Shown: piece after piece, positions 2,572-17,344 of the stretch
Layout of the letters: each line of letters starts with the position of its first letter
Position numbering within the stretch: position 1 is the first letter of the stretch
Origin: Bdellovibrionales bacterium
GTDB taxonomy: Bacteria; Bdellovibrionota; Bdellovibrionia; Bdellovibrionales; UBA840
DNA length: 17,963 nucleotides
Assembly: GCA_037969075.1 (NCBI GenBank)
Contig: JBBKWS010000082.1
Location: 1 to 17,963, forward strand
Direction of reading: 5' to 3'
Position numbers and translations under genes: made by a program
The notes under the pieces: model-generated
What the model was told of the DNA's origin: nothing
Seen by the model: only the letters and a program-made list of their open reading frames with translations
The model's database searches: none

Positions 2572-3327
2572 TTATAAAATTTCAATTTCATACTTTAGCG
2601 TAAGAGCTTTTTCAAAATTTATAGAATTATTATTCCAAAAATAAAACTCAAAGATATTCTTCTCATCTCCATCCTCAAAAAACCATTGGTAATTTAGGTC
2701 AGATTTAGATTCAGTAATTTTAAGAGACCAAAACGGCACCTCGCCCTGCTTAAACGTAACTCGGTACGTCTGATTGGTGGTTAGACTTTTGACAAATCCA
2801 ACGCAACCGTTTGCACTTTCACATCTCTGCTTAGGTAAAAAGTGGACCGTTCCACCATTCGTGTGCAAAAAAATTAAATTCTTATCCGGGTATGGCACCT
2901 TAAATCGTAAGAGATTTTCTTTTGTAGGTGCGGCTTGAGAGATTTCGCTCGCAGATTCAGCTGGCTCTGTATCTTCAATTTTTGGTTCAATAGAATTATC
3001 ATTTGGCTTATCTTTGACTTCTTGATTATCAGTAAGATCTTTACTGTTCCTGGCTTGCAGTTCAGACTGTAGAGAGGACCACTCGACTTCAATCTTAGCT
3101 AGCTTAATAATGTCCTTAAATAACCCAAATCCTCTGTATTGAAACTCGATGATTTTATCTTCGCTGACAATTTGGCAAAACCCGTTACATACTAAAATGT
3201 CGTTGTCCTCTATCGATAAAACTTGATTGTGCGAAATACCTTTTTTAACAACAATGCCATTTTTAATATGAATGTCTGCCATACAAAATGATGTTAGTAT
3301 TTTAAGGATTAAAAATAGATACGTCAT
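2572..3327 (-). CDS. Exported hypothetical protein, last gene of the motor-like operon
   Basis: The preferred start is ATG 3327, which overlaps the upstream TGA (ATGA overlap at 3324-3327) and gives the signal-like MTYLFLILKILTSFCMA. Beta-rich N-domain (weakly FecR-like), acidic linker, beta-rich C-domain. Confidence 0.75.
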   Translation of the reverse strand: MTYLFLILKILTSFCMADIHIKNGIVVKKGISHNQVLSIEDNDILVCNGFCQIVSEDKIIEFQYRGFGLFKDIIKLAKIEVEWSSLQSELQARNSKDLTDNQEVKDKPNDNSIEPKIEDTEPAESASEISQAAPTKENLLRFKVPYPDKNLIFLHTNGGTVHFLPKQRCESANGCVGFVKSLTTNQTYRVTFKQGEVPFWSLKITESKSDLNYQWFFEDGDEKNIFEFYFWNNNSINFEKALTLKYEIEIL

Positions 3328-4457
3328 GCAATATGTTTCCACTGACTAACTACCGCACAGTTTCTTCCTCTTTTTTTGGCTTCATACAAGTTTTTATCAG
3401 CAGTCTCTACATATATAGTGTAAGTAGGGTCCGCAGCATCACTACCAGAGATAGCGACTACGCCAAAGCTCGCAGTAACTGAAAGTGTCTTACCTGGCTC
3501 TGCCAAATGTGGGACTTTAGTAGTTTCTAGCGCTGACCTTAACTTTTCTGCAGCTATTTTTAACCCTTCGATATCAGTTCTTGGTAAAACCACTACAAAC
3601 TCTTCCCCACCATACCTGGCAACTACGTCTGTATTTCTGGCAAGAGCCCTTAGTGTTTTTGCTACACCTCGTAAAACTTCATCGCCCTGTTGGTGTCCAT
3701 AGGTATCATTGAATTTTTTAAAATGATCCACATCTAATAAGATCAATCCGCAGATATCATTATGTCTCTTTGCCAAATTTAATTCGCGTTGAAAACTCTC
3801 TTTAAAAAATCTATGATTCTTTAACCCTGTCATTCCATCAGTGGTAGCAAGCTCAGTGTACTTCTCAAGGGCCTGATCTTTTATCTCTAAGTCTTTAGTC
3901 AACTTACCAAGTGATCTATAAATCATCCCAAGCTCATCATTGGCAGTATAACTTAAATTCATATCAAGTCGGCCTGCTAATATGTCTTCAGTGGCTCTTC
4001 TTAGTCGTTTTAATGGGGTAAGAGCAAAGCTTAAGTAAATATAAGAAAATATTCCTAATAGAATTGATAAAGATAAGAATATTAATAATAAATTAGTATT
4101 TATACTTTCTAGCCAAGCTAAAAAGCTTACTTCACTAATTTCAACACTAAACGTATTGTCAGAGTACTTTCTGACCATAAACAACGTCTGCTTTTTTCCA
4201 TTGTCTTTAATAAAACCCATAGAATTAATATTTGACCCAAGCCAATTTTGCAGTTCAGGCTCAGGCAGTTCTAACTTTTTTAAATCATCTTTAGTTTGGC
4301 GGTATAGCGTTTGATGATCTGTCATCATTTGAGAGATAAAACCTAAATAATGATCTTTTGACAATACATAGCTTGATAGGTAGCCAATAGATACTAGCGC
4401 TAAGGACATAAGCGCCGATAATATTAAAAATTTAATTTTCAGGCTTAGGCTCTGCAT
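3324..4457 (-). CDS. Membrane-bound HAMP-GGDEF diguanylate cyclase
   Basis: Two TM segments flank a ~90-aa periplasmic region. HAMP (PLKRL...DELG), TDGMTGLKN, LDVDHFKKFNDTYGHQQGD, active site GGEEF, and I-site RNTD five residues upstream. Confidence 0.95.
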   Translation of the reverse strand: MQSLSLKIKFLILSALMSLALVSIGYLSSYVLSKDHYLGFISQMMTDHQTLYRQTKDDLKKLELPEPELQNWLGSNINSMGFIKDNGKKQTLFMVRKYSDNTFSVEISEVSFLAWLESINTNLLLIFLSLSILLGIFSYIYLSFALTPLKRLRRATEDILAGRLDMNLSYTANDELGMIYRSLGKLTKDLEIKDQALEKYTELATTDGMTGLKNHRFFKESFQRELNLAKRHNDICGLILLDVDHFKKFNDTYGHQQGDEVLRGVAKTLRALARNTDVVARYGGEEFVVVLPRTDIEGLKIAAEKLRSALETTKVPHLAEPGKTLSVTASFGVVAISGSDAADPTYTIYVETADKNLYEAKKRGRNCAVVSQWKHIA

Positions 4458-4467
4458 TTTTTTACCT

Positions 4468-5196
4468 TTAATCGAAATTAGGAATAATTTTAATAACCAC
4501 TCTTCTGTTTTGCGATTGATTGTCTGTGATTGGCGTACCTTGGCTGTTTCGATTAGGTAAGATGGGCCTTGTGTCTGCCATACCTATTGCCTTCAGTTTT
4601 TGAGGATCAAAGCCTTTATCTAAAAAAAATCGTAAGACTGAGCTTGCCCGCAAGCTTGACAGCTCCCAGTTAGAAGCAATTACACCTGCATTGATTGGAC
4701 TATCATCTGTATGTCCTTCGATTAATAACTCGTATTCTTTTGCTTTACTTGAAATGATAGGCTGTAATTTTAAAAGCAGATCTAAAGCCTCAGGTTTCAT
4801 CGCAACAGAGGCCGAGTCAAAAAACAATGCCCCTCTAAACGTAATGTTAACTCCGGTTGCACTTTTTTCTACAATCACCTGATTCTCTAGACCCTTTTCT
4901 GAAATGGCTTTATCAAGGTTTTTTGATAATTCAGAAAAAGGAATTTGGTACTCTCCGCCAAATACTTTAGATGTCTCTTGTTTTACTTTTTCAAAAACCT
5001 CAGCATCTATTTTTGAAAAACTAAGAAGCATTACAAAGAAGCCCACAAGTAAGGTCATCATATCTGCATACGATATAAGCCAGTTGCCCTCACCCTCATC
5101 TACATGAGATGGCGACTCTGCTTCTTCAAAAAAATAAACAGCTGGCTTAGCCGCAGCCTTTATTTCTTCGTCCTTTAGTCTTTCTGCAGCTGACAT
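4468..5196 (-). CDS. motB: Stator B subunit, MotB/PomB family with OmpA-like peptidoglycan-binding domain
   Basis: WLISYADMMTLLVGFFVML carries the conserved ion-binding Asp (D45). Also IEGHTD, SNWELSSLRA and NRRV motifs. Confidence 0.95.
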   Translation of the reverse strand: MSAAERLKDEEIKAAAKPAVYFFEEAESPSHVDEGEGNWLISYADMMTLLVGFFVMLLSFSKIDAEVFEKVKQETSKVFGGEYQIPFSELSKNLDKAISEKGLENQVIVEKSATGVNITFRGALFFDSASVAMKPEALDLLLKLQPIISSKAKEYELLIEGHTDDSPINAGVIASNWELSSLRASSVLRFFLDKGFDPQKLKAIGMADTRPILPNRNSQGTPITDNQSQNRRVVIKIIPNFD

Positions 5197-5198
5197 AA

Positions 5199-5984
5199 TT
5201 AAGCAACCTTTTTAAGCTTGTTTCTTTCAAACGGTAGTAAATAACTCTTTAAAAACTCTTCAACAATCAGTGGGTGTTCTTTTTCTCTTAAAAGTTTAAT
5301 TCCTACAATGACCATTTTACGTGAAACCTGATCTTCTTTATTTAGCTTGATTAAATTTTCTCCCATAGGGATAAATACAAGGTTTGCGATTGCAATACCG
5401 TATAGAGTTGCCACTAACCCGATAGCCATCGCAGGGCCTAAGAGCTTAAATGAATCAGGTGACCCTATGTTTTGCAAAAGGGCGATCATACCAAGAGTAG
5501 TCCCTAACAAACCAAAAGCTGGAGGAAATTTACCCATTACCTTAAAAATATTTGCTTCATCCTCATATCTCTTAAAATGTGTTGCAGCTCTTTGTTGTAA
5601 AATGGCATCCATTTTATCTTCTGGTATCCCACCTTCAACCATGAGTTCTATAGCCTCTTTTAAAAATGGAAATTTGATAGCGTTAACACTATTTTTTAAG
5701 AACTGACTGTCTTCTCTATAGCCTTTTGATAAGATAACTATTTCTTCAATCAATGAAGAGTGAGTTCCGGCAAATTTACCTAAGATTTTTTTAAAAAACA
5801 CTGTAAACAAGGTTCTGATAGTCGAAAAAGGAAAACATATTAGTGTTGCAGCCATCGTTCCACCAATAACTATTGCTATTGCGTGTGGATCTAAAAATAT
5901 TTTCCAGTTGGATGTAGCTGATATGGTACCATAACCTAGTACTGCAATAGCTGTGAGTAATCCAATAATTGCTGTAAAATTCAT
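5199..5984 (-). CDS. motA: Stator A subunit, MotA/PomA family
   Basis: IVIGGT, PAFGLLGT, VATLYG, NLVFIP and a C-terminal HP motif. Its stop lies 2 nt before the motB start. Confidence 0.95.
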   Translation of the reverse strand: MNFTAIIGLLTAIAVLGYGTISATSNWKIFLDPHAIAIVIGGTMAATLICFPFSTIRTLFTVFFKKILGKFAGTHSSLIEEIVILSKGYREDSQFLKNSVNAIKFPFLKEAIELMVEGGIPEDKMDAILQQRAATHFKRYEDEANIFKVMGKFPPAFGLLGTTLGMIALLQNIGSPDSFKLLGPAMAIGLVATLYGIAIANLVFIPMGENLIKLNKEDQVSRKMVIVGIKLLREKEHPLIVEEFLKSYLLPFERNKLKKVA

Positions 5985-6013
5985 ACGTTTATCCTTTTAG
6001 CGTAATCATACAA

Positions 6014-6595
6014 TCATAAAAAATAATAAAGTCCAAAAAAAATATGCACCATTCGTAGTCTACCATCGCCAACGATACCCTCTGCCCAATTTAGTTCTGA
6101 GCGCCAGCCCCAAGGACCAAAAAGAGGAGATTCAAAACCGGCCTTGCCAGACACATAGGCCTTGGCAACAGATACATCTCTTCCATTTTCTGTGAGTCTT
6201 GGTAGACTGGATTGAGCAAAACCAACGGACGCACCTAGATAAGGAATGTAACCTTTTTGTAGTATTACAGTTTCTTCAATTTGATCTGACGGATTTTTTA
6301 AATCTTGCGCATGCGGTGTCCATAAATACCATCTCGCAGCAAAGCCAGTGGCCCCAATATTACTTTTGGTACCCTTCCAACTTCTATTGTGCTCAAAGCC
6401 AATGGTAAACCTAGAGCTCATCGAGTACTCAGTAGAAAATCCTAATGCCAATGGCTCTTCTGTTTTAACTACACCTTCATTCTCGGCACCTGCTGAACCA
6501 ATCCCAAGGCTACCCACAAAGCGTATGTTGCTAGACTCCGCTAGCGCACCAAAACAAAAGAAAAGAATCGATGCGATCATACTAAGAGGCCACAC
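6014..6595 (-). CDS. Small outer-membrane beta-barrel protein (probably 8-stranded)
   Basis: GTG start with a strong SD (GAGGAGG, 6602-6608 on minus). Signal peptide ending ALA. Alternating amphipathic strands (PYLGASVGFAQ, YVSGKAGFE, WGWRSELNW) and C-terminal HIFFGLYYFL. Confidence 0.8.
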   Translation of the reverse strand: MWPLSMIASILFFCFGALAESSNIRFVGSLGIGSAGAENEGVVKTEEPLALGFSTEYSMSSRFTIGFEHNRSWKGTKSNIGATGFAARWYLWTPHAQDLKNPSDQIEETVILQKGYIPYLGASVGFAQSSLPRLTENGRDVSVAKAYVSGKAGFESPLFGPWGWRSELNWAEGIVGDGRLRMVHIFFGLYYFL

Positions 6596-8468
6596 GTACC
6601 GCCTCCTCAGTGTTATTACTTACAGTAAAGATCGAATCTAAATCTACTTCGCCTTTATTTACCATTTTAAGTAGCTTTAATTTAAGTGAACTTAAATGTT
6701 TATTTTTAGTCTTAATATCCATCTTATCTTCAAGATTAAAATCATCATTAACGATGGTTTTTATTCTAGATGGGCATAAATTTAAAATTTGATCTTTTTT
6801 GTCAGCATATACTTTTACCAAAGACATAACTTCATCGTTAGTGGCTTGCGTAAATAAGTTTCTGGCTTTTTCTTCTGGCCACTCATGGATAAAAGCAAGA
6901 GATGGAATGTTTTTCTTTAAAGATATGCCACCATCTGAAATTTTGGGGACGATATCTTTTAATAAAAGAAGTTCATCTAATACAGAGATAGAGGCAAACA
7001 GTCTTGGTACCAATGATTGCATGGAAACAGTATCTTGAGTATTAACTTTCTTTTTTACTTCAAACTTTAGTGTTTCACTAGCAGTTTCAATATCGGTAAC
7101 CAAAACCGCATTCATATTTAGAGCATTTTCGATAATTTCTTTCTTTTGCTCAAAAGTAGCTTTTTCTAAATATTCTTCTTGTTTTGCTTCTGGTAAATGA
7201 AGTACGGCAAGCGCTCGCATCTGACCAGATTGGCCCTCAAGCATGGCTTGAATGTCTTTTGTTGGTACCTTAGATATATAGTCAAATGGTTGCTGTAAAT
7301 ACGAAGCACCTAGAGCCTTTAGCGATAGTAGGTCCCAATAGACTTCTTCTAAAATTTTAAGCCTATCCTCAAATGAGGAATCTGCCATTTTGTCAAACGT
7401 ACTGCGCATGCTTTTCTTTACAGAATCTGGGATAATGTCATTAAAATTTAAAATGCTTTCAATTTTATTACTTTCTTTTAATCTATCATTTTGAGAGGCA
7501 ACAACGTCTAATAAACAGGCGGCCTTTACATAACCCCTATCGCCTGCATCAAGCCAAACGCTCATAATATCTTTTATGTTCTTTGTGTTTTGATTTACGG
7601 TCCAAACCACTTTACTATGTACATCTTTCAGCATGTCTAGCTCAAATTGTCCTAAGCTCCGCTGAGGAATTAGCTTTTGTTCGTCCTCTTCAACTATGTC
7701 TATTACTGGCTCAGCAGGCCTTTCCATCTGTAACTCATTATGCTGTTGTTGAAGCCGAGCTCTTAAACTACGCTCTTCAGTAGCATCTTTTGAGCTCATT
7801 CTTTTTATCAAAAAAATACTAACCAGTACTGTAAAAAATAACAGTAGAGCTGCAATCAAAGTTTGCAATTGAGAAATGTAGTCAAAAAATCCAGTTGGTA
7901 GTTTTGGTTCAATGGGTTTAGATTTTATTAAATTTACTTCAACATTTGTAGAAATACCAGAAAAGTCATTTTCCGTTGTTTTTTTAAGCCAATCTAAAAA
8001 TACTTTTGAGTACTCCTCACCGTATATCTCTTGCAGTCCAACTTGAATGTTTAGTGACTTTACTTTAAATTCTTTTTTATTATTAGTTTCTTGTAAAATT
8101 GTTTGCGTGATAATCTCTTGCCGAATCTTAAGATTATCTATTTCTTCTTCATAGCTTCTAATCAATCCTTCTGCATCAATTAGACCTGCCGTCAAGTCTA
8201 AGGCTCTAGGCTCAGAAGCTATTTTTCTTACAGGTGTGAATGGTTTATTAGTACTTACTTGTGTTAGCTCGGCTTGGACACTTACTTCAAATGTGTCTTT
8301 TTCTAATGTGGTACCGACGGTTGCCCTTAGGCGTTTATTGATAGCATCTTCTACTTGGGTTTTTGCATGAATTAAATCGGCATCACCCAGGGTTTGCGCA
8401 AAAGCAAACTTTGGCGCTATTAGCGCCGTACAAAGTATAAAAATGATAGTAGACAAAGCTAATTTCAT
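6582..8468 (-). CDS. FliF-FliG-like fusion protein (signal peptide, RBM3-like periplasmic domain, one TM helix, FliF C-tail, FliG N/M/C-like domains)
   Basis: Signal peptide ending AFA. RBM3-like INKRLRATV...FEVSVQAEL and KVKSLNIQV; TM at aa ~203-221; junction IMSVWLDAGDRGYVKAACLL; FliG_M-like PFDYI...RALAVLHLP; FliG_C-like CPSRIKTIVNDD and KGEVDL. The ORF itself is certain; the domain call is from remembered motifs. Confidence 0.8.
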   Translation of the reverse strand: MKLALSTIIFILCTALIAPKFAFAQTLGDADLIHAKTQVEDAINKRLRATVGTTLEKDTFEVSVQAELTQVSTNKPFTPVRKIASEPRALDLTAGLIDAEGLIRSYEEEIDNLKIRQEIITQTILQETNNKKEFKVKSLNIQVGLQEIYGEEYSKVFLDWLKKTTENDFSGISTNVEVNLIKSKPIEPKLPTGFFDYISQLQTLIAALLLFFTVLVSIFLIKRMSSKDATEERSLRARLQQQHNELQMERPAEPVIDIVEEDEQKLIPQRSLGQFELDMLKDVHSKVVWTVNQNTKNIKDIMSVWLDAGDRGYVKAACLLDVVASQNDRLKESNKIESILNFNDIIPDSVKKSMRSTFDKMADSSFEDRLKILEEVYWDLLSLKALGASYLQQPFDYISKVPTKDIQAMLEGQSGQMRALAVLHLPEAKQEEYLEKATFEQKKEIIENALNMNAVLVTDIETASETLKFEVKKKVNTQDTVSMQSLVPRLFASISVLDELLLLKDIVPKISDGGISLKKNIPSLAFIHEWPEEKARNLFTQATNDEVMSLVKVYADKKDQILNLCPSRIKTIVNDDFNLEDKMDIKTKNKHLSSLKLKLLKMVNKGEVDLDSIFTVSNNTEEAVRVAS

Positions 8469-9122
8469 TTAGGGGCTAACCTCTTTACTAGGAAGTCTTT
8501 GAGTTTTACCAACCCCATCTCCTACTATTTTTTTTAAATAAACTACCATCTTATTGGCATCATCAAAATTTGGGTCCAGTGCTAATGCTTTTTCAAACCA
8601 CTTTAAGCTTTCAGTGTATTCTTTTTGAATAAAATAAATAGAGGCTTTAAAAGATACACCTCTTGTGAACTCACTATCAATCGCTAAGGCCTTATCAACT
8701 TCTTCATGCGCCCTTGTGAACTCTCTTAAGTTTGCAAATTTTTGAGCATTAAATAAATTTTGCAGAAGTTTTTGCGCTATTTGGCTTTCTTCTTTTCCAG
8801 GCTTTAATTTAGCCAAGATAATGGTTTCTTTTGCTCCCATGCGACTGGCTGGTACTAGCATGCGCTCTGGCAGAAAATCTTTTTTCTCAACAATTAATTC
8901 AAAAAAATCACCACTTGAAGATGTTACTTGTGCTTTTTTTTGCAATTCTTCTTGGCTAATTTCTAAAGGTGTTTTACCTAAAGAAATTTTTTCTTCTCTA
9001 CCAGTGGTTTTTGCATACACCTCTGCTTCACTAGGTTCGCTTTTTATTACAAACTTAGATGCACATGATGATACTAATAACATTACTAGTAGTAATTGTA
9101 ATAATCGAAGTATCTGTGACAT
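8469..9122 (-). CDS. Lipoprotein with PEGA-like N-domain and TPR repeats
   Basis: Lipobox LVSSC (Cys20). IKSEPSEAEVY...LGKTPL is PEGA-like. KALAIDSEF and YTESLKWFEKALALDPNF are TPR-like. Its stop directly abuts the next ATG. SD GAGGA. Confidence 0.85.
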   Translation of the reverse strand: MSQILRLLQLLLVMLLVSSCASKFVIKSEPSEAEVYAKTTGREEKISLGKTPLEISQEELQKKAQVTSSSGDFFELIVEKKDFLPERMLVPASRMGAKETIILAKLKPGKEESQIAQKLLQNLFNAQKFANLREFTRAHEEVDKALAIDSEFTRGVSFKASIYFIQKEYTESLKWFEKALALDPNFDDANKMVVYLKKIVGDGVGKTQRLPSKEVSP

Positions 9123-9268: not shown

Positions 9269-9433
9269 AACTGGCCTACTTTAGTGTTGTTATTTTCTAT
9301 TATCTCTAGTTACTATTTAGCTAAGGTGTCGTGTACATTTCGTTAAGTGCCCGAGAAAGCAATAAAAAAATATCAAAATTCAGCTATTTACAGGTTATTG
9401 ATTAGAGTTCAACAACACTAAAGTAGGCCAGTT
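9269..9433. repeat. Perfect 23-bp inverted repeat with a 119-bp spacer
   Basis: AACTGGCCTACTTTAGTGTTGTT (9269-9291) and its exact reverse complement AACAACACTAAAGTAGGCCAGTT (9411-9433). Confidence 0.95.
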
Positions 9434-9459: not shown

Positions 9460-9535
9460 ATGACCATTATAATGGTCATAAAAGGCAATTAAGTATATTA
9501 TAATGGTCATCCAGCTTGACTATTGATAGGCCTAA
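9460..9535. promoter_or_regulatory. Palindromic operator array upstream of the HTH antitoxin gene
   Basis: Perfect 20-bp palindrome ATGACCATTATAATGGTCAT (9460-9479), a second copy AAGTATATTATAATGGTCAT (9491-9510), and a degenerate third copy at 9516-9535. Confidence 0.75.
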
Positions 9536-9550: not shown

Positions 9551-9886
9551 ATGACCGAAACTAAGAAAAGAACCTATTCACGCTATACAAAAGAGGCTAC
9601 TGTCCTGCTGGCCAAACACATCAAGCTTTGTCGTAAAAAGCGCGCTTTATCAGAGCAAAGTGTAGCGGACCGTGTTGGTATTTCTCGTGCAACTCTTCAA
9701 AAGATTGAAAAGGGAGACCCTAAGTGCGAATTGGGTTTGTATTTCGAGACTGCAACTATAGTGGGGGTTAAACTTTTTGAAGTGGATTCTTCATTTGTGG
9801 CAAATATCCAGCAATTAAATGAAACGCTGGCCTTACTTCCAAAGAGCATTCGTAAGAAAAAAACAGTGGTAGATGATGACTTCTAA
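9551..9886 (+). CDS. XRE/Cro-type HTH regulator, HipB-like antitoxin
   Basis: HTH_3 pattern RKKRALSEQSVADRVGISRATLQKIEKG. Overlaps the start of the HipA-family gene. Confidence 0.9.
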   Translation: MTETKKRTYSRYTKEATVLLAKHIKLCRKKRALSEQSVADRVGISRATLQKIEKGDPKCELGLYFETATIVGVKLFEVDSSFVANIQQLNETLALLPKSIRKKKTVVDDDF

Positions 9887-11189
9887 AATACAAAAGTACA
9901 ATGAAGCTTACGTTTGGATTTGGCTACCCGGCGAAGTACAGCCCGTGGTCGCCGGAAAATTAACTGCTGAGAACAAAAACTTAGTTTTTAATTATGGCCA
10001 AACATATTTAGAACGTCCCAATAAAATCTCTATCTATGAGTCAGAACTCCCATTACAAAGAGGTATACTTGCATTACGTGGCATCTTAACAATTCCTGGA
10101 TGTATTCGTGATGGATCTCCTGATGCTTGGGGAAGACGGGTTTTAATCAACAAAAAATATGGTGCCGTAGGTTCTTCTATTGACCAAGTTCAAATGGATG
10201 AACTTGCGTTTCTACTTGAGTCTGGATCGGACCGAATCGGTGCATTAGATTTTCAAAAGTCGCCCACTATTTACAAGCCGCGCTTAACACAAAATGCCAC
10301 TCTAGAAGAACTTATCGAGTCCGCCGAACGGGTAGAAAAAGGCATTCCCCTTACTTCTGAATTAGATCAGGCTCTTTTTCATGGAAGCCCTATCGGAGGC
10401 GCGCGTCCAAAAGCACTGGTTGAAGATACTGAAAAAAACAAAAAGTATATTGCTAAGTTTTCATCTACTACTGATTTTTATAGTGTCATCAAAGCTGAAT
10501 TCATCGCTATGAAATTAGCCAGACTATCTGGTTTAGATGTCGCAAATGTTTTATTAAAGAAATCTTCTGGAAAAGATGTACTGCTTGTTGAAAGATTTGA
10601 CCGCTTTTATTCTCCTAGGGGCTGGGAACGCAAGAATATGGTTTCAGCATTAACTATATTTGAGTTTGATGAAATGGAAGCTAGATATGCAAGTTATGAA
10701 GTCTTGGCCGAAATTATTAGACATAGATTTTATGATCCTTCAATAGCATTAGTAGAGCTGTTTAAACGACTCGTATTTAATATATTGGTGGGTAACAACG
10801 ATGATCACGCCAGAAATCATGCAGCCCTTTGGGATGGAAAAATGCTAAAACTCACACCTGCCTATGACATCTGCCCTCAGCCACGAACTGGCGGTGTCTC
10901 TTCGCAAGCCATGCGTATTCACGGTAATATAAACTCAAGTCAACTTAACGAATGCATTGTTGCAGCATCACAGTTTCTGTTAACTAAAAAAGAGGCGATT
11001 TTAGCTATCGAAGAAATTGCCGTAAGTATTATTAAAAATTGGAAGCTTATTTGTAAAGAGGCCGAGCTTTCAATCGTTGATAAAAATCTATTCGCTGCTA
11101 ATCAGTTTTTTAATCCATTTGCGTTTCAAAACCTGGATGATGAAAGCAAGCACCTTGAGAAACTTCTTAAAAAATTTAAGGACCTATAG
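9873..11189 (+). CDS. hipA: HipA-family Ser/Thr kinase toxin
   Basis: N-domain PDAWGRR and DRIGALDF, Gly loop IGGARPK, LLVERFDR, catalytic NNDDHARNH and LTPAYD. The start could be 9873 or 9876. Confidence 0.93.
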   Translation: MMTSKIQKYNEAYVWIWLPGEVQPVVAGKLTAENKNLVFNYGQTYLERPNKISIYESELPLQRGILALRGILTIPGCIRDGSPDAWGRRVLINKKYGAVGSSIDQVQMDELAFLLESGSDRIGALDFQKSPTIYKPRLTQNATLEELIESAERVEKGIPLTSELDQALFHGSPIGGARPKALVEDTEKNKKYIAKFSSTTDFYSVIKAEFIAMKLARLSGLDVANVLLKKSSGKDVLLVERFDRFYSPRGWERKNMVSALTIFEFDEMEARYASYEVLAEIIRHRFYDPSIALVELFKRLVFNILVGNNDDHARNHAALWDGKMLKLTPAYDICPQPRTGGVSSQAMRIHGNINSSQLNECIVAASQFLLTKKEAILAIEEIAVSIIKNWKLICKEAELSIVDKNLFAANQFFNPFAFQNLDDESKHLEKLLKKFKDL

Positions 11190-11356
11190 CCATGAAGCCT
11201 TCTCTAAGCTCGCAAACATTACGTGGTCGTACATTTGGGTGGTTAACCGATAGATCACCCTACTCGTTAGCGTTGGCTGAGCTTCGCTATCTAAAATTTG
11301 TTATGTTTCGAATAGAGTCTTAATCGTTTCAAGAATAGTTAAATCGAACTAAATGG

Positions 11357-14300
11357 TTACTCCCAAAGCGGAGTAACACCTCGTAAAATCGGAAACCCAT
11401 TATTAATAGTATTAGACGTCGGCATCTTCCACACTGTGGTAAAGTCCCAGCCTGCCGCTGTAAAATTACCTTGGTCACGCATTTGCGTAATATTTAAATC
11501 CGTTGCACCACTACTTAAACCAGATGCTGCTTGGCCTGTGCCGGCGCTATAATAAAAGTTATTGCTTGCAATAAATTCAAGTAAAGTTTGAGTCCCTACG
11601 ATAGAATTGGTGTTAGCAAGACCACTAGCAGAGGCCATAGCATAGTTTCGCGATAATGTAATCTGTGCTGGACTTGTATTTATATTACCTACTAGGCCGC
11701 CGTTAGTTGTACCGTTAGGACAACTTAAGCTTACATTTGCATACGTATCACTGATACTAGAAGTATATGTATTACCACCTACTGAGCCAATTAATCCACC
11801 TAAAATGCAGTTAGAGATACGCGGTGAAAATATTGAACCTTTAGTGACGACATTTGATAAGATCAACGAGCCAGGATTTGCTATAGAACCCGCGACGCCA
11901 CCATAATTATAACTATTTAAACTAGTACCAACAATATTAGCAGTAATAGATACGTTTTCTAAAATGACACGCCCGCTACTCGTACTGCCAATTACGCCGC
12001 CACCGTTACCTGATGAAATTGAAGAAATATTAGTAGTAATTTGGCTATTTGTTAACCTAAAACCACCTGTGCTGGCGCCTATTACACCACCTACATTTAC
12101 ATATTGATTTATGAAATTCACATTTATTTTTATATTATTAAAATCAATGCCGGTGACCCCTGCACCAACCAAGCCTCCCACTGTATTCGGGACGTTGCCA
12201 TCAATAGTACCATGAACAAAAACATTCTCCATTGGTGTAGCACAATTAGTAGTGCCGCATTGACGATTGCCAATAACCAATCCACCTCTCACACCTTCTA
12301 CAAACAAATTACCATTTAATATATGAATATTCCCCGTGACATTAGAACTCTGTGAAAAGTAATGCCCCATTAAGTTAGCAACTTGGTTTCTGCCTCTTAT
12401 ATTGAAGTTCTTTATAAATAAATTTTTAAACCAAGTATTATCATTGCCAAGCGCACCTGCATATCCAAATAAAGCATTATAGTCCCTTGAAGTATCATTA
12501 TATACGTAGTTAGAGACCATCATGTTGTTACCGTCAAGTCTTCCATAAAGCGGTAAAGCTGAAGACCCAATCGGCACAAACGAATTCGCAGTCCAAGAAG
12601 CTAAATCGATATGATCCATTAGTTTAAAGTAATATTCGCCTTGTAAAAAATCAGTTGGTGCTTGATCACGAAGGCGGTTTAGTTGGTCGCCGTTACAGAT
12701 GATAAACGGATCACCAATGGCACCTGTGCCTGATGCCATACCTGTTGGCGGTTGGGCTTGGTCGCAAATGTAAGAGTCGATATAGGTGTAAATGCCTGCG
12801 GAGGCGGTTTGTCCGTCTTCGTTTTCAACCTGCACAGTGGTGCTTGTCTCTGTCAAACTTGTAGGAGTTAAGCAAGTCATTACATTAAACTCATTTCTTG
12901 TAAGACCTGTATCACAGTAGTTTGATCCCACCTTAATTCTGGCACCATTACCAAAGCCGTCACCTTTAACAAGTAACATCTTACCACCAGAGCGGTGCCC
13001 TGTGTTTCTACCTAAATACTGTACACTCATAATGTTGGCAGATTTTACCGTAATGTTAGCTTCACTTGTGTTACCCGCAAGATCAGTAGCCCTGATTAAA
13101 TAATTGATATACCTGTTTTGACCAAAAGGCCCTTTTTGATTGGTAATACTTGTTAATCCAAAACCACTCGTTACCAATGTATCTGATGTGGTTGCAAGAA
13201 CATCTACATCGTCTTCATCGGCACCAATTTTTTTATACACATCCACTGAGATTTGACCTAAACTCGTCACTGCATCTACCAGTGTCCAATCTAGCTTCCA
13301 TAATTTATCTTTTACACTTCTTGCACTATTATCTATTTTTTTAATCGCAAGACTGCCGATACCTGGAGGCGTTAAATCATTAATTACAACTTGTTTAATA
13401 TTGTTGTCATCACAACTCATATTGTTGGATTGATCAAATGCACAAACAATATAGTAATACACATTACCTTCAACTAAAGTATCCACGTCTGTTAAGCTTG
13501 TTGCTACCGTCAGGTTTGTAATAACCGTAATGTTAGGGCTTGGATCAATATCTGGCCTGCTCTTTGGAAGCGCGTAATCACTACCGCGTTTTCTGTAAAG
13601 CCTATATCTAATCACACTACTATCTTGCTGATTATCCGTAGCAGCAGACCAAGAAACTAAAGGGTTAGCGCCAGCTCCTACAGTCAATCCTGAGTTAAAT
13701 ACCGGGATTGTTAAATCGCTCGTCCTCGCTACCTGCTTATAAGAGCCTGGAGGACTGAGGTAAGAAGTAATATTACCTGATATGTCGTAGGCTGCTACAT
13801 ATAAATTATATGTTTTATAAGCTGGTAACCCTTGAATACTGCAACTTGTAATAGTGTTTGGACAATGATTACCAGAGCATGGACAATCTTTTATAGCAAC
13901 CGCAGGGATTGTTGTATCATTATCTAAAGCATAGATTTTAAACCCACGGTACTCAGCCCATGATGGTGGAGCTGCCCATGTCACTGTGATTTTCCCCTCT
14001 TCTGTTGGATCGGCTGTAGCTAAAGTAATACCTGTAAAACCTGCAGGAGGGGTAATGTCTGGAATAAGTAAACTTAGTGCCTGAGTATTAGAAAAGTTTG
14101 TACAATTTTGCGCCCCATACGTCGGAAACGCATCATCACAAGCATTTACAAGTACAAAAATTTGTTCATTATCTAAATAAGCATAATCACTTTGCTTAAA
14201 ACTAGCACCAGTCGAAAAGCTACCGTGCGACTTAGCTGGTAGCTCTACTAAAGCCACAGGGACAGTTTGTGTACCCTTCCAAACTTTAATTTTATACTCT

Positions 14301-15781
14301 TTAATGTCCCCTGCGACCGATGGATCCCAAGTTAACTCCACCCTGTTTTGCTCATTATTATAAGAGATGCCAATCAAACCATTGAATTCAGGGGCAGTGA
14401 TATCTTTAGTGATTAAATCTAACTGCGCTGTCGTGTTTGAAATATTCCCGGCGGTGTCTCTAGCCTTTACACAAATGCCGTAACGACTTCTCTGCGCTAA
14501 GTTAATCAAATCATATACCACAGGGTTACCAGTCGTGTATGCACTCGCATCAACCTGCGAAACTAGTATGCCATTAGTACAAACAGTCATTGGGTCAGCA
14601 AGACCTAGGGTTTGACTATAAACTAAATAATGGCTAGCACCATTTGCATTACCAGGCTGTGAGTCAATAGCCGTCCAACCAAGCGCAAGTACAGTGTCTT
14701 GCGGACTGCCATAATTTAATGTTTCAATTCCTGTAAAAGCAGGAGCCGTTGTATCACCAGAATTAATACTAACAATTGCGGTTGCTGTATTACTTAAATT
14801 ACCTATGGGATCTTCATCGATTACATAATAAGAATAATCAGTGTTTTGAGCTAATACTTCATTTACATTTAAACTTGTGGCCGGAGCAATATAAGGACTG
14901 GCAACATTAAAAGTTTGAATCAATGTATATGCACCTACTCCAATTTGTCTGTAGACTAAACGTCTTTTTATTGCGCCATTAGCAAACGACCAAGGAGCGT
15001 TTAATACCGAGCGCCCATTGACTATACTTACACCAATTAAACCAAGTGTCTGCGGTGCACCCCTATCAACTAACGTAAGCGCACGTGTTGCGGTATTTGT
15101 ATCACAAACATTACTAATATTACAGGCTCTAACCGCATATCTATACGGCATCTCATCACCAATCGCCGTTATTGGGATACTAAAAGTATTTGCGCTCCCA
15201 TTTGTTACTGTCGCAATAGGAGCCAAACTAAAATTAATATCCCCACTATTAGGCCCAGGGTTTGCGTAGATTTTATATTCTTTCGTAGGTATACCTGTTG
15301 CCACATTCCACTGAACCACCACATTAGCACCTGTAAGCGTAGCAGATGTTATACCACTAAATGTTGGTGGATTAACCGCCTCTGTAGTCTCAGTGACCGT
15401 TTGATCACCTAATAAATCTTTACCATTTTTAGTAAGTACGCACTCGTAAGTATAAGTTGTTCCTTCAACTAAGCCAGAGTCTAAAAAAGACGTAACCGTC
15501 GGATTTAAAAACACACCAGCCAGTGAACTATTACGAAAAACTGTAATTTTGGTTGCATCACTTGGAAATTCAAACTCAACTAATATACTATTGACCCCTT
15601 GTGCTGTCGCACTCACACAGCCATTGATTCCTGAATTGGTTGAGGAGGTAGCATCTTCTGCGGTTTCTTTAAGACATCCAATGGTAGAAAGCAATAAAAC
15701 AGATAGCATCGCAAAAACATAAAGTTTTTTGCGCGCAAAAGCCGATCTTATATTATACGTTCTAGCAGATAACGATTCCAT
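11357..15781 (-). CDS. Large surface lipoprotein/adhesin-like protein with FN3-like repeats, an IPT/TIG-like domain and a GLUG-motif C-terminal region
   Basis: Lipobox-like STIGC (Cys36). Repeated domain starts VNPPTFSGI, DTTAPAFTGI, DITAPEFNGL, DITPPAGFTGI, DLTIPVF, DLTPPGI. IPT-like GGKMLLVKGDGF...CLTP. GTGAIGDPFII followed by repeated xGG(L/V)(I/V)G and terminal GWDFTTVW...NGFPIL. Confidence 0.85.
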   Translation of the reverse strand: MESLSARTYNIRSAFARKKLYVFAMLSVLLLSTIGCLKETAEDATSSTNSGINGCVSATAQGVNSILVEFEFPSDATKITVFRNSSLAGVFLNPTVTSFLDSGLVEGTTYTYECVLTKNGKDLLGDQTVTETTEAVNPPTFSGITSATLTGANVVVQWNVATGIPTKEYKIYANPGPNSGDINFSLAPIATVTNGSANTFSIPITAIGDEMPYRYAVRACNISNVCDTNTATRALTLVDRGAPQTLGLIGVSIVNGRSVLNAPWSFANGAIKRRLVYRQIGVGAYTLIQTFNVASPYIAPATSLNVNEVLAQNTDYSYYVIDEDPIGNLSNTATAIVSINSGDTTAPAFTGIETLNYGSPQDTVLALGWTAIDSQPGNANGASHYLVYSQTLGLADPMTVCTNGILVSQVDASAYTTGNPVVYDLINLAQRSRYGICVKARDTAGNISNTTAQLDLITKDITAPEFNGLIGISYNNEQNRVELTWDPSVAGDIKEYKIKVWKGTQTVPVALVELPAKSHGSFSTGASFKQSDYAYLDNEQIFVLVNACDDAFPTYGAQNCTNFSNTQALSLLIPDITPPAGFTGITLATADPTEEGKITVTWAAPPSWAEYRGFKIYALDNDTTIPAVAIKDCPCSGNHCPNTITSCSIQGLPAYKTYNLYVAAYDISGNITSYLSPPGSYKQVARTSDLTIPVFNSGLTVGAGANPLVSWSAATDNQQDSSVIRYRLYRKRGSDYALPKSRPDIDPSPNITVITNLTVATSLTDVDTLVEGNVYYYIVCAFDQSNNMSCDDNNIKQVVINDLTPPGIGSLAIKKIDNSARSVKDKLWKLDWTLVDAVTSLGQISVDVYKKIGADEDDVDVLATTSDTLVTSGFGLTSITNQKGPFGQNRYINYLIRATDLAGNTSEANITVKSANIMSVQYLGRNTGHRSGGKMLLVKGDGFGNGARIKVGSNYCDTGLTRNEFNVMTCLTPTSLTETSTTVQVENEDGQTASAGIYTYIDSYICDQAQPPTGMASGTGAIGDPFIICNGDQLNRLRDQAPTDFLQGEYYFKLMDHIDLASWTANSFVPIGSSALPLYGRLDGNNMMVSNYVYNDTSRDYNALFGYAGALGNDNTWFKNLFIKNFNIRGRNQVANLMGHYFSQSSNVTGNIHILNGNLFVEGVRGGLVIGNRQCGTTNCATPMENVFVHGTIDGNVPNTVGGLVGAGVTGIDFNNIKINVNFINQYVNVGGVIGASTGGFRLTNSQITTNISSISSGNGGGVIGSTSSGRVILENVSITANIVGTSLNSYNYGGVAGSIANPGSLILSNVVTKGSIFSPRISNCILGGLIGSVGGNTYTSSISDTYANVSLSCPNGTTNGGLVGNINTSPAQITLSRNYAMASASGLANTNSIVGTQTLLEFIASNNFYYSAGTGQAASGLSSGATDLNITQMRDQGNFTAAGWDFTTVWKMPTSNTINNGFPILRGVTPLWE

Positions 15782-16597: not shown

Positions 16598-17344
16598 ATG
16601 AAGTATCTAATAGTTTTTACAACATTGCTAATCGCATTCACAGGGCTGGTTGAAGCAGCAGAAGAATCTAGCAGCTGCTTCAAAATGAAAGACTCTACAC
16701 TACTGCAATATCTGTGTTCTGAAACAAATAAAGATGTGGTGATCCCTAATTTTGTCACCGCAATTGATGATTACGCGTTTGCTTTTAATGACTTACAGAG
16801 CGTAGTTATTCCTAAGTCTGTTACTTCAATAGGTAGATGGGCTTTTGCCTATAACCAGTTAACATATATAACAATCCCTAGCTCGGTACATTCGATTGGC
16901 AAAGGTAGTTTTGCTGAAAACCAGCTTGAGGTTCTAGTGATTCCTAAGTCTGTTACTTTTGTTGGCGAAGACGCATTTTATAGTAATCAATTAAGAGAAG
17001 TACTTATTCCTAACTCTATTACTTCAATACCTAATGGAGTTTTTTATAAAAACCAATTAACTACTATAACAATCCCTAATTCGATTGTTTCTATTGGTGA
17101 AAAAGCCTTTGCTAATAACGATCTACAAAGCCTCTCACTGCCAAGTTCCGTCAATGATATTAATGATTGGGCCTTTGCAAATAACCAATTACAAAGTGTA
17201 CAAATTCCTAATTCTGTCACCATTATTGGTGCATATGCTTTTTACTCCAACCTATTGAAAAAGGTATTCATCCCCAGCTCTGTAATTTCGATTGGTTATA
17301 AGGCTTTTGCTGAAAATCCGGATATTACAATTGATAGAGATTAA
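16598..17344 (+). CDS. Exported BspA/TpLRR-like leucine-rich repeat protein
   Basis: Signal peptide ending VEA, then nine tandem 22-aa repeats of the form xxIPxSVxxIGxxAFxxNxLxx (16736-17329). SD GGGGG. Confidence 0.92.
   Translation: MKYLIVFTTLLIAFTGLVEAAEESSSCFKMKDSTLLQYLCSETNKDVVIPNFVTAIDDYAFAFNDLQSVVIPKSVTSIGRWAFAYNQLTYITIPSSVHSIGKGSFAENQLEVLVIPKSVTFVGEDAFYSNQLREVLIPNSITSIPNGVFYKNQLTTITIPNSIVSIGEKAFANNDLQSLSLPSSVNDINDWAFANNQLQSVQIPNSVTIIGAYAFYSNLLKKVFIPSSVISIGYKAFAENPDITIDRD

Follow-up and report, generated by a model that had tools for sequence, protein, structure and literature searches.

Here we show that a natural fusion of the flagellar proteins FliF and FliG is encoded in a stretch of 17,963 nucleotides from a Bdellovibrionales bacterium (contig JBBKWS010000082.1 of assembly GCA_037969075.1; the whole stretch is called the window). 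The product, of 628 amino acids (aa), is composed of the third ring-building motif (RBM3) of FliF, one transmembrane (TM) helix, the FliF tail and the N-terminal, middle and C-terminal domains (N, M and C) of FliG, without RBM1 and RBM2. The gene belongs to a module with its own motA and motB and with genes for a lipoprotein and a predicted outer-membrane barrel, which is probably a rotor-stator unit outside any flagellum. The original prediction, made from the sequence alone, was of a FliF-FliG fusion in which a signal peptide takes the place of TM1, RBM1 and RBM2 of FliF. The fusion gene and the parts of its product are as follows.

6582..8468 (-): FliF(RBM3-TM2-tail)-FliG(N-M-C) fusion gene, 628 aa (open reading frame, profile and model matches)
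8397..8468 (-): aa 1-24, Sec signal peptide (predicted), with A-F-A at its end (aa 1-19 hydrophobic)
7917..8390 (-): aa 27-184, single periplasmic ring-building motif, RBM3-like (VIA, ESM Atlas and hhalign)
8070..8258 (-): aa 71-133, insert of about 63 aa at the beta-collar position (model and family alignment)
7806..7862 (-): aa 203-221, single membrane helix at the FliF TM2 position (hydropathy 2.87; helix in the model)
7539..7640 (-): aa 277-310, FliF C-terminal tail ending W305-L306 (hhalign)
7299..7541 (-): aa 310-390, equivalent of the FliG N-terminal domain (hhalign of this region only, expectation value (E) 5.8e-4, and full alignment)
7053..7292 (-): aa 393-472, FliG middle domain (Z 12.1, root-mean-square deviation (rmsd) 1.8 over 80 residues to 4fq0)
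6639..7031 (-): aa 480-610, C-terminal domain of FliG (aa 521-608 match 1qc7 at Z 9.9)

As a single query the fusion protein matched only MgtE_N in Pfam (E 0.01) and nothing in NCBIfam or among PDB sequences. Since single-sequence searches gave no FliF or FliG family match, we used family profiles and a structure model. A search of 1.84 billion representatives returned 190 clusters (50% identity) at E<=0.001, while a word-index search for relatives found only 4 proteins. The family alignment was drawn from 150 relatives among the listed matches and one from the word-index search; after exclusion of 34 (32 shorter than 550 aa and two long, weak ones) it held 117 relatives. The AlphaFold2 model had a mean predicted local distance difference test score (pLDDT) of 85, and the top ten Foldseek matches to it were all FliG. 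Further fold matches were sought by VIA among 48,161 chains. The same architecture was found family-wide, which excluded a fusion arising from a frameshift, by chance or through an assembly artefact. Databases label members of the family 'FliG C-terminal domain-containing protein'. As a separate observation, 78 of the 117 family members end in Ala-Ala, as compared to 16 of 2,408 open reading frames of the source genome; the protein of the window ends RVAS. A C-terminal Ala-Ala resembles a ClpXP-type degradation tag, and these ends hint at regulated turnover in the family.

The family profile found FliG structures first (1lkv, E 1.4e-18), and aa 310-610 aligned with FliG 16-336 (HH probability 98.3%, E 1e-14) in a FliG profile built from 28 Bdellovibrionota sequences. 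FliG_C was matched by 37 and FliG_M by 24 of 77 family members at E<=0.05. FliG N, M and C were thus returned in order, which together with the Foldseek result excluded a generic MgtE_N/ARM protein. The region 7509-7598 had been read as a FliF terminal helix ending in WL (NTKNIKDIMSVWLD, aa 294-307), running into a FliG N-terminal start at RGYVKAACLL (aa 311-320); AGD joins the two. Both assignments agreed with the alignments. The last 34 residues of the FliF profile aligned with aa 277-310 (84%, pairwise E 7e-6), with W305-L306 on the terminal WL of FliF and W305 present in 109 of the 117 relatives, and DRGYVKAACLL aligned on LKGFEKAAILI, its G-x-x-KAA-x-L lying on GFEKAAIL. The junction domain (aa 268-395), modelled alone, had a pLDDT of 90. 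It found no match in Foldseek and gave weak VIA matches (Z <=7.3), where FliG chains took four of the five top rows, on their M or C domains. The FliFc:FliGn co-crystal chains 5tdy and 5wuj were absent from the VIA list for this domain, and in the VIA search with the full model they matched the FliG middle domain. As the fold matches did not exceed Z 7.3, it is the profile alignments that support reading the junction as a co-folded FliF-C/FliG-N.

The EHPQ motif is the FliM-binding site of FliG. It is present in 27 of the 28 ordinary FliG sequences and is replaced by GQSG in the fusion. The torque-helix charges R568, D575 and D576 (6741-6767) are all present and align on the R and the E/D-D of the FliG torque helix, as numbered for E. 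coli FliG (R281, D288, D289; PMC12505986) and mapped via FliG of the source genome. The acidic pair is kept in the family: position 575 is D or E in 107 of the 117 relatives, and position 576 likewise in 107.

In the AlphaFold2 model, aa 27-184 fold in the order alpha-beta-[insert]-beta-alpha-beta, and RBM3 has been described with a matching order of helices and strands (PMC11481574, PMC8270960). The best VIA match of this periplasmic part was RBM3 of Vibrio FliF (8z5v, Z 12.1, rmsd 3.0 Å over 98 residues), followed by RBM3 of Salmonella (6scn residues 230-436, Z 11.0) and of 8z4d (Z 10.9); the best matches other than FliF were Ohr (Z 8.7), SpoIIIAF (8.6) and EscJ (8.1). YscJ_FliF_C clusters were the top match in the ESM Atlas (score 0.90). 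At the sequence level the likeness was weak. Aligned by hhalign, aa 28-68 matched alpha1-beta1 of RBM3 with a pairwise E of 7e-4 and a probability of 26%, the best match to a whole-length FliF profile was again RBM3 alpha1-beta1 (E 0.003-0.004), and none of 77 family members matched Pfam YscJ_FliF_C. The positions of two ring-interface residues of FliF are conserved: Leu253 corresponds to aa 51, which is L, I or V in 116 of the 117 relatives, and Val266 to aa 64, which is A or V in 99 (numbering from PMC8270960, mapped via the source genome's own FliF).

The predicted loss of TM1, RBM1 and RBM2 stood as well. An RBM1-2 profile gave no alignment with the fusion protein, and the residues ahead of the first periplasmic helix (median 25) number at most 80 in 116 of the 117 relatives, which leaves no room for TM1-RBM1-RBM2. 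The putative signal peptide cleavage site, AFA|Q, lies at residues 22-25, with A24 kept in 69% of the relatives, and exactly one hydrophobic segment was found beyond residue 45 in 113 of them. The insert of aa 71-133 lies between beta1 and beta2, where FliF carries its beta-collar, and thus at the collar position given in the original prediction. However, it was modelled as a low-confidence loop followed by a helix (aa 99-128), with no beta hairpins. A conserved P-x-D-L-x-x-G-x-x-D motif lies ahead of this helix, and the insert is 35-115 aa long in the relatives (median 53). Within an assembled ring the insert may yet take a beta form. Taken together, the data confirmed that the protein consists of RBM3, one membrane helix, the FliF tail and FliG N-M-C. 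Neither outcome named beforehand as contrary to the prediction was obtained, be it a periplasmic domain lacking the RBM fold or a cytoplasmic part resembling generic ARM/MgtE_N folds alone. The prediction had not included the module with its MotAB, lipoprotein and barrel, the helix in place of the collar or the loss of EHPQ.

The genes around the fusion run in the order lipoprotein, fusion, barrel, motA, motB, GGDEF and 256-aa gene, with successive intergenic gaps of 0, -14, 29, 2, 10 and -19 nt. Together with a giant lipoprotein gene farther upstream they are as follows.

8469..9122 (-): 217-aa lipoprotein with PEGA-like N-terminal part and TPR (Pfam TPR; PEGA in a relative), abutting the fusion gene (0 nt)
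6014..6595 (-): small beta-barrel of 193 aa, predicted to lie in the outer membrane, with a 14-nt overlap with the fusion gene
5199..5984 (-): MotA, PomA/MotA-like flagellar-stator type, module-specific clade (NCBIfam and tree)
4468..5196 (-): MotB with plug, channel Asp and OmpA peptidoglycan-binding domain (Pfam and motif)
3324..4457 (-): membrane diguanylate cyclase with HAMP and GGDEF (as GGEEF), 10 nt downstream of motB and not retained at the other loci
2572..3342 (-): 256-aa protein of no known family, last of the run (no match in Pfam or NCBIfam)
11357..15781 (-): 1474-aa fn3-repeat lipoprotein, candidate cargo (Pfam fn3)

The barrel of the window itself had no Pfam match, and the OMP_b-brl matches of its relatives (E 3e-4 and 1e-3) did not reach the cut-off. 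MotA scored best with PomA/MotA models (PomA E 4e-42 as compared to TolQ E 3e-5, all below the cut-offs). In a tree of 45 rows, with few outgroups and long branches, the module MotA proteins formed a clade of their own that grouped with the flagellar-type stators, split from the ExbB/TolQ-type rows at 100/100. Thus, by family scores and tree the module MotA is not of TolQ/ExbB type; no direct search was made for the Gld, Agl and Zorya families. The channel Asp motif was found in 29 of 29 module MotB proteins, and the position of MotA R90 is R in 18 of 29 module MotA proteins (numbering of R90 and E98 from PMC12505986, mapped by alignment).

Among 301 genomes of the phylum, the fusion was found in 18 places at E<1e-100, further forms of 545-800 aa scoring lower; 256 genomes matched, most of them via ordinary FliG. 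Forty loci with long frames, taken by high score and not at random, were compared together with the window, and the profiles of the partner families were built from these 41 loci themselves. The lipoprotein is next to the fusion in 36 of the 41 loci, the small-barrel family occurs in 26 and a secreted family of about 390 aa in 10 others, MotA and MotB both lie within six genes of the fusion in 28, and an fn3 lipoprotein family of 2,100-2,400 aa lies within three genes of it in 8. Over 27 loci the median identity was 15% for the rotor, 22% for the lipoprotein and 38% for MotA. When the fetched loci were searched with the source genome's flagellar proteins, no match was obtained for fliF, fliM, fliN, flhA or fliP; the hits were flagellin at 3 loci, the fusion itself and generic ATPases. 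In three genomes (97, 91 and 89% complete; G232, G071 and G055) that carry the fusion and MotB, searches for flagellin, FlhA, FliM/N and both FliF domains returned no match. A longer form of the fusion (710-800 aa, with a periplasmic part of about 240 aa) was observed at loci L041-L049, accompanied by the secreted partner of about 390 aa and often by a gene for a cyclic nucleotide monophosphate (cNMP)-binding-like protein ahead of motA.

The source genome carries a single ordinary fliF-fliG pair, on contig C110 and separate from the module, which excluded the fusion as a substitute for a lost fliF-fliG. In this pair the stop of fliF overlaps the start of fliG, so the fusion mirrors the order of the operon, and we infer that it was derived from an adjacent fliF-fliG pair. 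Four module-like gene sets occur in the genome, on contigs C82 (the window), C182, C78 and C193. The first two have in common a 3,469-bp cassette of motA, motB, GGDEF and the 256-aa gene, with 87% identity at the DNA level and 97% identity of MotA/MotB.

2572-6040 of the window and C182:11481-14949: duplicated stator-GGDEF cassette (sequence comparison)

Outside the cassette, identity between the two sets is 20-24% for lipoprotein and barrel, and the rotors can hardly be aligned. A profile of 12 sequences built for the C182 rotor identified it as a true homologue (98.1%), and its ESM Atlas score of 0.76 serves as a lead only; among the three other sets, rotor homology was confirmed for C182 alone. 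The assembly is 5.7% contaminated. Since the remainder of C182 lacks a comparably close copy and shows a typical composition, duplication is favoured over contamination. A giant fn3 lipoprotein paralogue (E 9e-219) lies directly beside the C182 module, so that both complete modules have one nearby. The C182 set also has a 549-aa coiled-coil protein between barrel and motA (C182:9813-11462) which is absent from the window module, and the candidate sets at C78:863-3901 and C193:3783-8164 encode single-TM proteins of 584 and 575 aa ending AA. Outside the flagellar and module loci, C140:2782-3435 encodes a stand-alone, soluble 217-aa protein with a FliG_C domain and a C-terminal coiled coil; a soluble FliG-like gene of Bdellovibrio bacteriovorus (Bd0876/Bd0878 in two supplements) has a strong defect in transposon insertion sequencing (Tn-seq).

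A form of the fusion of about 577 aa is present in named B. bacteriovorus genomes. The 90% clusters hold HD100 CAE80783 ('FliG protein'), Q6MIX6 and Q6MIX4; the last two are Bd3019 and Bd3021 according to published supplements, in which Bd3014 (Q6MIY0) matches the first in length and name. Since the module clusters hold Bd3014, Bd3019 and Bd3021, motAB2 (Bd3021/Bd3020) is the stator pair of the HD100 module, with the lipoprotein Bd3018 and the barrel Bd3019 as partners. This distant member of the family has the same architecture and the same kinds of partners as the window, but differs in gene order, in having two barrels and a SpoIIE gene after the module, and in having no giant lipoprotein nearby. 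Proteome data (PMC12546842 supplement) include 22 peptides of Bd3014, whose level peaks in attack phase. Bd3014 mRNA is low, at 4-5 reads per kilobase per million mapped reads, and was flagged as not expressed (PMC3627812 supplement). The pair motAB2 is reported to be absent from several epibiotic strains (PMC11870529). Bd3014 is not named in the main text of any searchable paper, 'FliG protein' being a database label only.

We consider it probable that the module is a stand-alone rotor-stator unit outside any flagellum, and on balance we favour a unit that is driven by its own MotAB and coupled to outer-membrane partners. From the homology to RBM3 and FliG the fusion protein likely forms a ring, and engineered Vibrio FliF-FliG fusions do build rings (PMC11481574). 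The kept acidic torque pair points to contact between stator and rotor. Mechanistically, Sec would export the chain, which one membrane helix would anchor; the RBM3 domains would pack into a ring, and the FliF tail would fold with FliG-N beneath the membrane. MotA5B2 units anchored to the wall would then contact FliG-C and make the ring rotate, in a single fixed direction because there is no FliM/FliN site. Since there is no rod, barrel and lipoprotein would receive the output via the helical insert. GldLM is described as driving an adhesin-carrying outer ring or belt (PMC13104615), and the motion would most plausibly reach the surface lipoprotein, the candidate cargo, in the manner in which GldLM moves adhesins. 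Given a stand-alone rotor-stator unit, surface-protein handling as its output has a little less than an even chance. The fullest version, a widespread rotor-stator-only machine with a one-protein ring and a dedicated MotAB clade which moves or deploys giant surface lipoproteins via barrel and lipoprotein, is put forward tentatively.

Several observations weigh against such a motor. The beta-collar that helps to hold FliF rings is missing from the predicted model of the fusion. The basic torque residue is weakly kept, with R or K at 568 (the FliG R281 position) in 53 of the 117 relatives, and this is paralleled by the E98 position of MotA, which is E in 8 of 29 module proteins as compared to 4 of 4 other stators; thus one charge pair is largely kept and the other relaxed. 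An adjacent MotA and MotB pair is lacking in 13 of the 41 loci, some of which stop at a contig edge. In G232 a MotA of the module clade is encoded on the contig of the fusion at a distance of about 24 kb, and modules without adjacent motAB may therefore use a displaced pair. No protein of at least 800 aa is encoded in 20 of the 41 loci, including most B. bacteriovorus-type loci, so giant cargo is not universal. Flagellin genes occur in 3 of the 40 fetched loci, and a review has three motAB pairs power the one flagellum of B. bacteriovorus (PMC13689555). Finally, the Tn-seq data available for strain 109J list no strong predation defect for module genes, with W of 0.58-0.78 for the Bd3014 orthologue, as inferred from gene order, about 1-6 for the other module genes and about 2 for motAB, strong hits having W<0.1 (PMC6561027). 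According to a 2026 review (PMC13104615), the gliding motor of Bdellovibrio has yet to be identified. As gliding has been called essential for invasion in a review, the same Tn-seq result argues against the module as the essential gliding motor of B. bacteriovorus.

The mild Tn-seq phenotype and the relaxed charge pair could also be accommodated if the unit were a sensor, which informs adjacent signalling enzymes of ion-motive force, surface contact or load on the envelope, with little or no sustained rotation. The GGDEF gene follows motB closely and was duplicated with motAB on C182, a SpoIIE-HAMP family is present in 8 of the 41 loci, and a cNMP-binding-like family (a label read from sequence) in 6. 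However, the signalling gene varies between loci and is missing from many, the constant partners are the lipoprotein and the barrel, and the whole FliG and the ring domain have been retained; we regard a sensor as unlikely. The constancy of these two partners would also suit an energiser of outer-membrane transport, similar to TonB or the type IX secretion system, in which the ring opens or pulls the barrel-lipoprotein pair for solute import or lipoprotein export without surface movement. Related 5:2 motors do energise transport (PMC12505986, PMC13104615), and rotor, barrel and lipoprotein diverge fast relative to the conserved stator, as expected of cargo-specific parts. Yet a barrel of about 190 aa is too small for a protein-conducting pore, as reasoned from 8-stranded barrels with the strand number here assumed. 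This proposal overlaps with the rotor-stator unit favoured above and differs only in output; the chance that it holds in its own right appears small.

A role of the fusion and its MotAB in the ordinary flagellum, be it as a reserve of stators, a brake or an alternative ring, is highly improbable. Such a role would agree with the assignment of all three motAB pairs to one flagellum in the above review, with the increased expression of motA2/motB2 in a fliL mutant (PMC11323537) and with the few loci that have flagellin genes. The abundance of Bd3014 also correlates no less with that of flagellar FliG and FliF (r 0.98) than with that of MotAB2 (r 0.96), a co-variation which is not specific. Against this, the fusion occurs in three genomes without a flagellar match, it has neither RBM1-RBM2 nor EHPQ, four module-like sets face a single fliF in the source genome, and FliL bound MotB3 and not MotA2 or MotB2 in the reported two-hybrid test (PMC11323537). 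A decaying flagellar remnant without function of its own, which fast divergence, the patchy spread at E<1e-100 and the low mRNA in B. bacteriovorus might suggest, is scarcely credible in view of intact frames, one architecture over 190 clusters, invariant-like residues in every domain, conserved partners and a detected protein.

Other features of the window lie around the module. A hipBA-like pair separates the module from the giant lipoprotein gene.

9551-11189 (+): HTH_3 gene and HipA-like kinase (hipBA-type toxin-antitoxin pair)

Ahead of this pair, a palindromic operator-like sequence occurs in two copies at 9460-9510. A perfect 23-nt inverted repeat with a 119-nt spacer (9269-9433) lies just upstream of the first gene of the module, and the unit could be a small mobile element. 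A terminator-like hairpin (11356-11377) follows the fn3 lipoprotein gene; promoter and terminator scans of the window gave counts at chance level (25 as compared to 26.9, and 7 as compared to 7.1). Two divergent PAP2-family phosphatase genes are located at 723-2521 and a secreted BspA-type leucine-rich-repeat protein at 16598-17344 (+).

The module resembles the flagellar motor core in having RBM3, TM2, the FliF tail and FliG N-M-C in the order of the fliF-fliG gene pair, a flagellar-type MotA, a MotB with plug, Asp and peptidoglycan-binding domain, and the acidic torque pair. It differs in that the rotor is one chain, with a signal peptide for TM1-RBM1-RBM2, a helix for the beta-collar and no EHPQ, and in that genes for export gate, rod and FliM/N are not alongside, while it has a lipoprotein and a barrel of its own. 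Laboratory fusions (Salmonella mutants; Vibrio FliFG, PDB 8z4d/8z4g) likewise join the FliF tail directly to FliG; they retain the whole of FliF and are products of laboratory construction or selection, whereas the fusion of the window is natural, truncated and about 13% identical to them in the aligned parts. GldLM-GldKN, AglRQS, TolQR, ExbBD and ZorAB are similar as 5:2-type ion motors for non-flagellar work at the envelope, but none has FliG or an RBM3 ring, and the module MotA groups with flagellar stators. SpoIIIAF/SpoIIIAG and SctJ of the injectisome (EscJ, PrgK) have the RBM fold (Z 6.7-8.6) and are ring parts related to the flagellum that are used elsewhere, without FliG and without a stator. 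The injectisome has kept the export gate and lost the motor; the module here has the reverse set.

To our knowledge, FliG rotors have been described only in flagella. Searchable literature, from which subscription papers and bioRxiv supplements were excluded, held no description of a natural FliF-FliG fusion or of its module. All parts have known homologues, and the novelty lies in the system, whose function as a motor is proposed here. If the rotor-stator unit is real, it would represent a novel class of envelope motor on which ideas of how the flagellar motor was built up or dismantled could be tested, a mirror image of the injectisome with the motor kept and export lost. It would also provide a minimal living model of a MotAB stator and a FliG ring without a flagellum. 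B. bacteriovorus HD100 is genetically tractable and makes the Bd3014 protein, and its 'motAB2', so far read as flagellar, would then be mainly the stator of a second motor.

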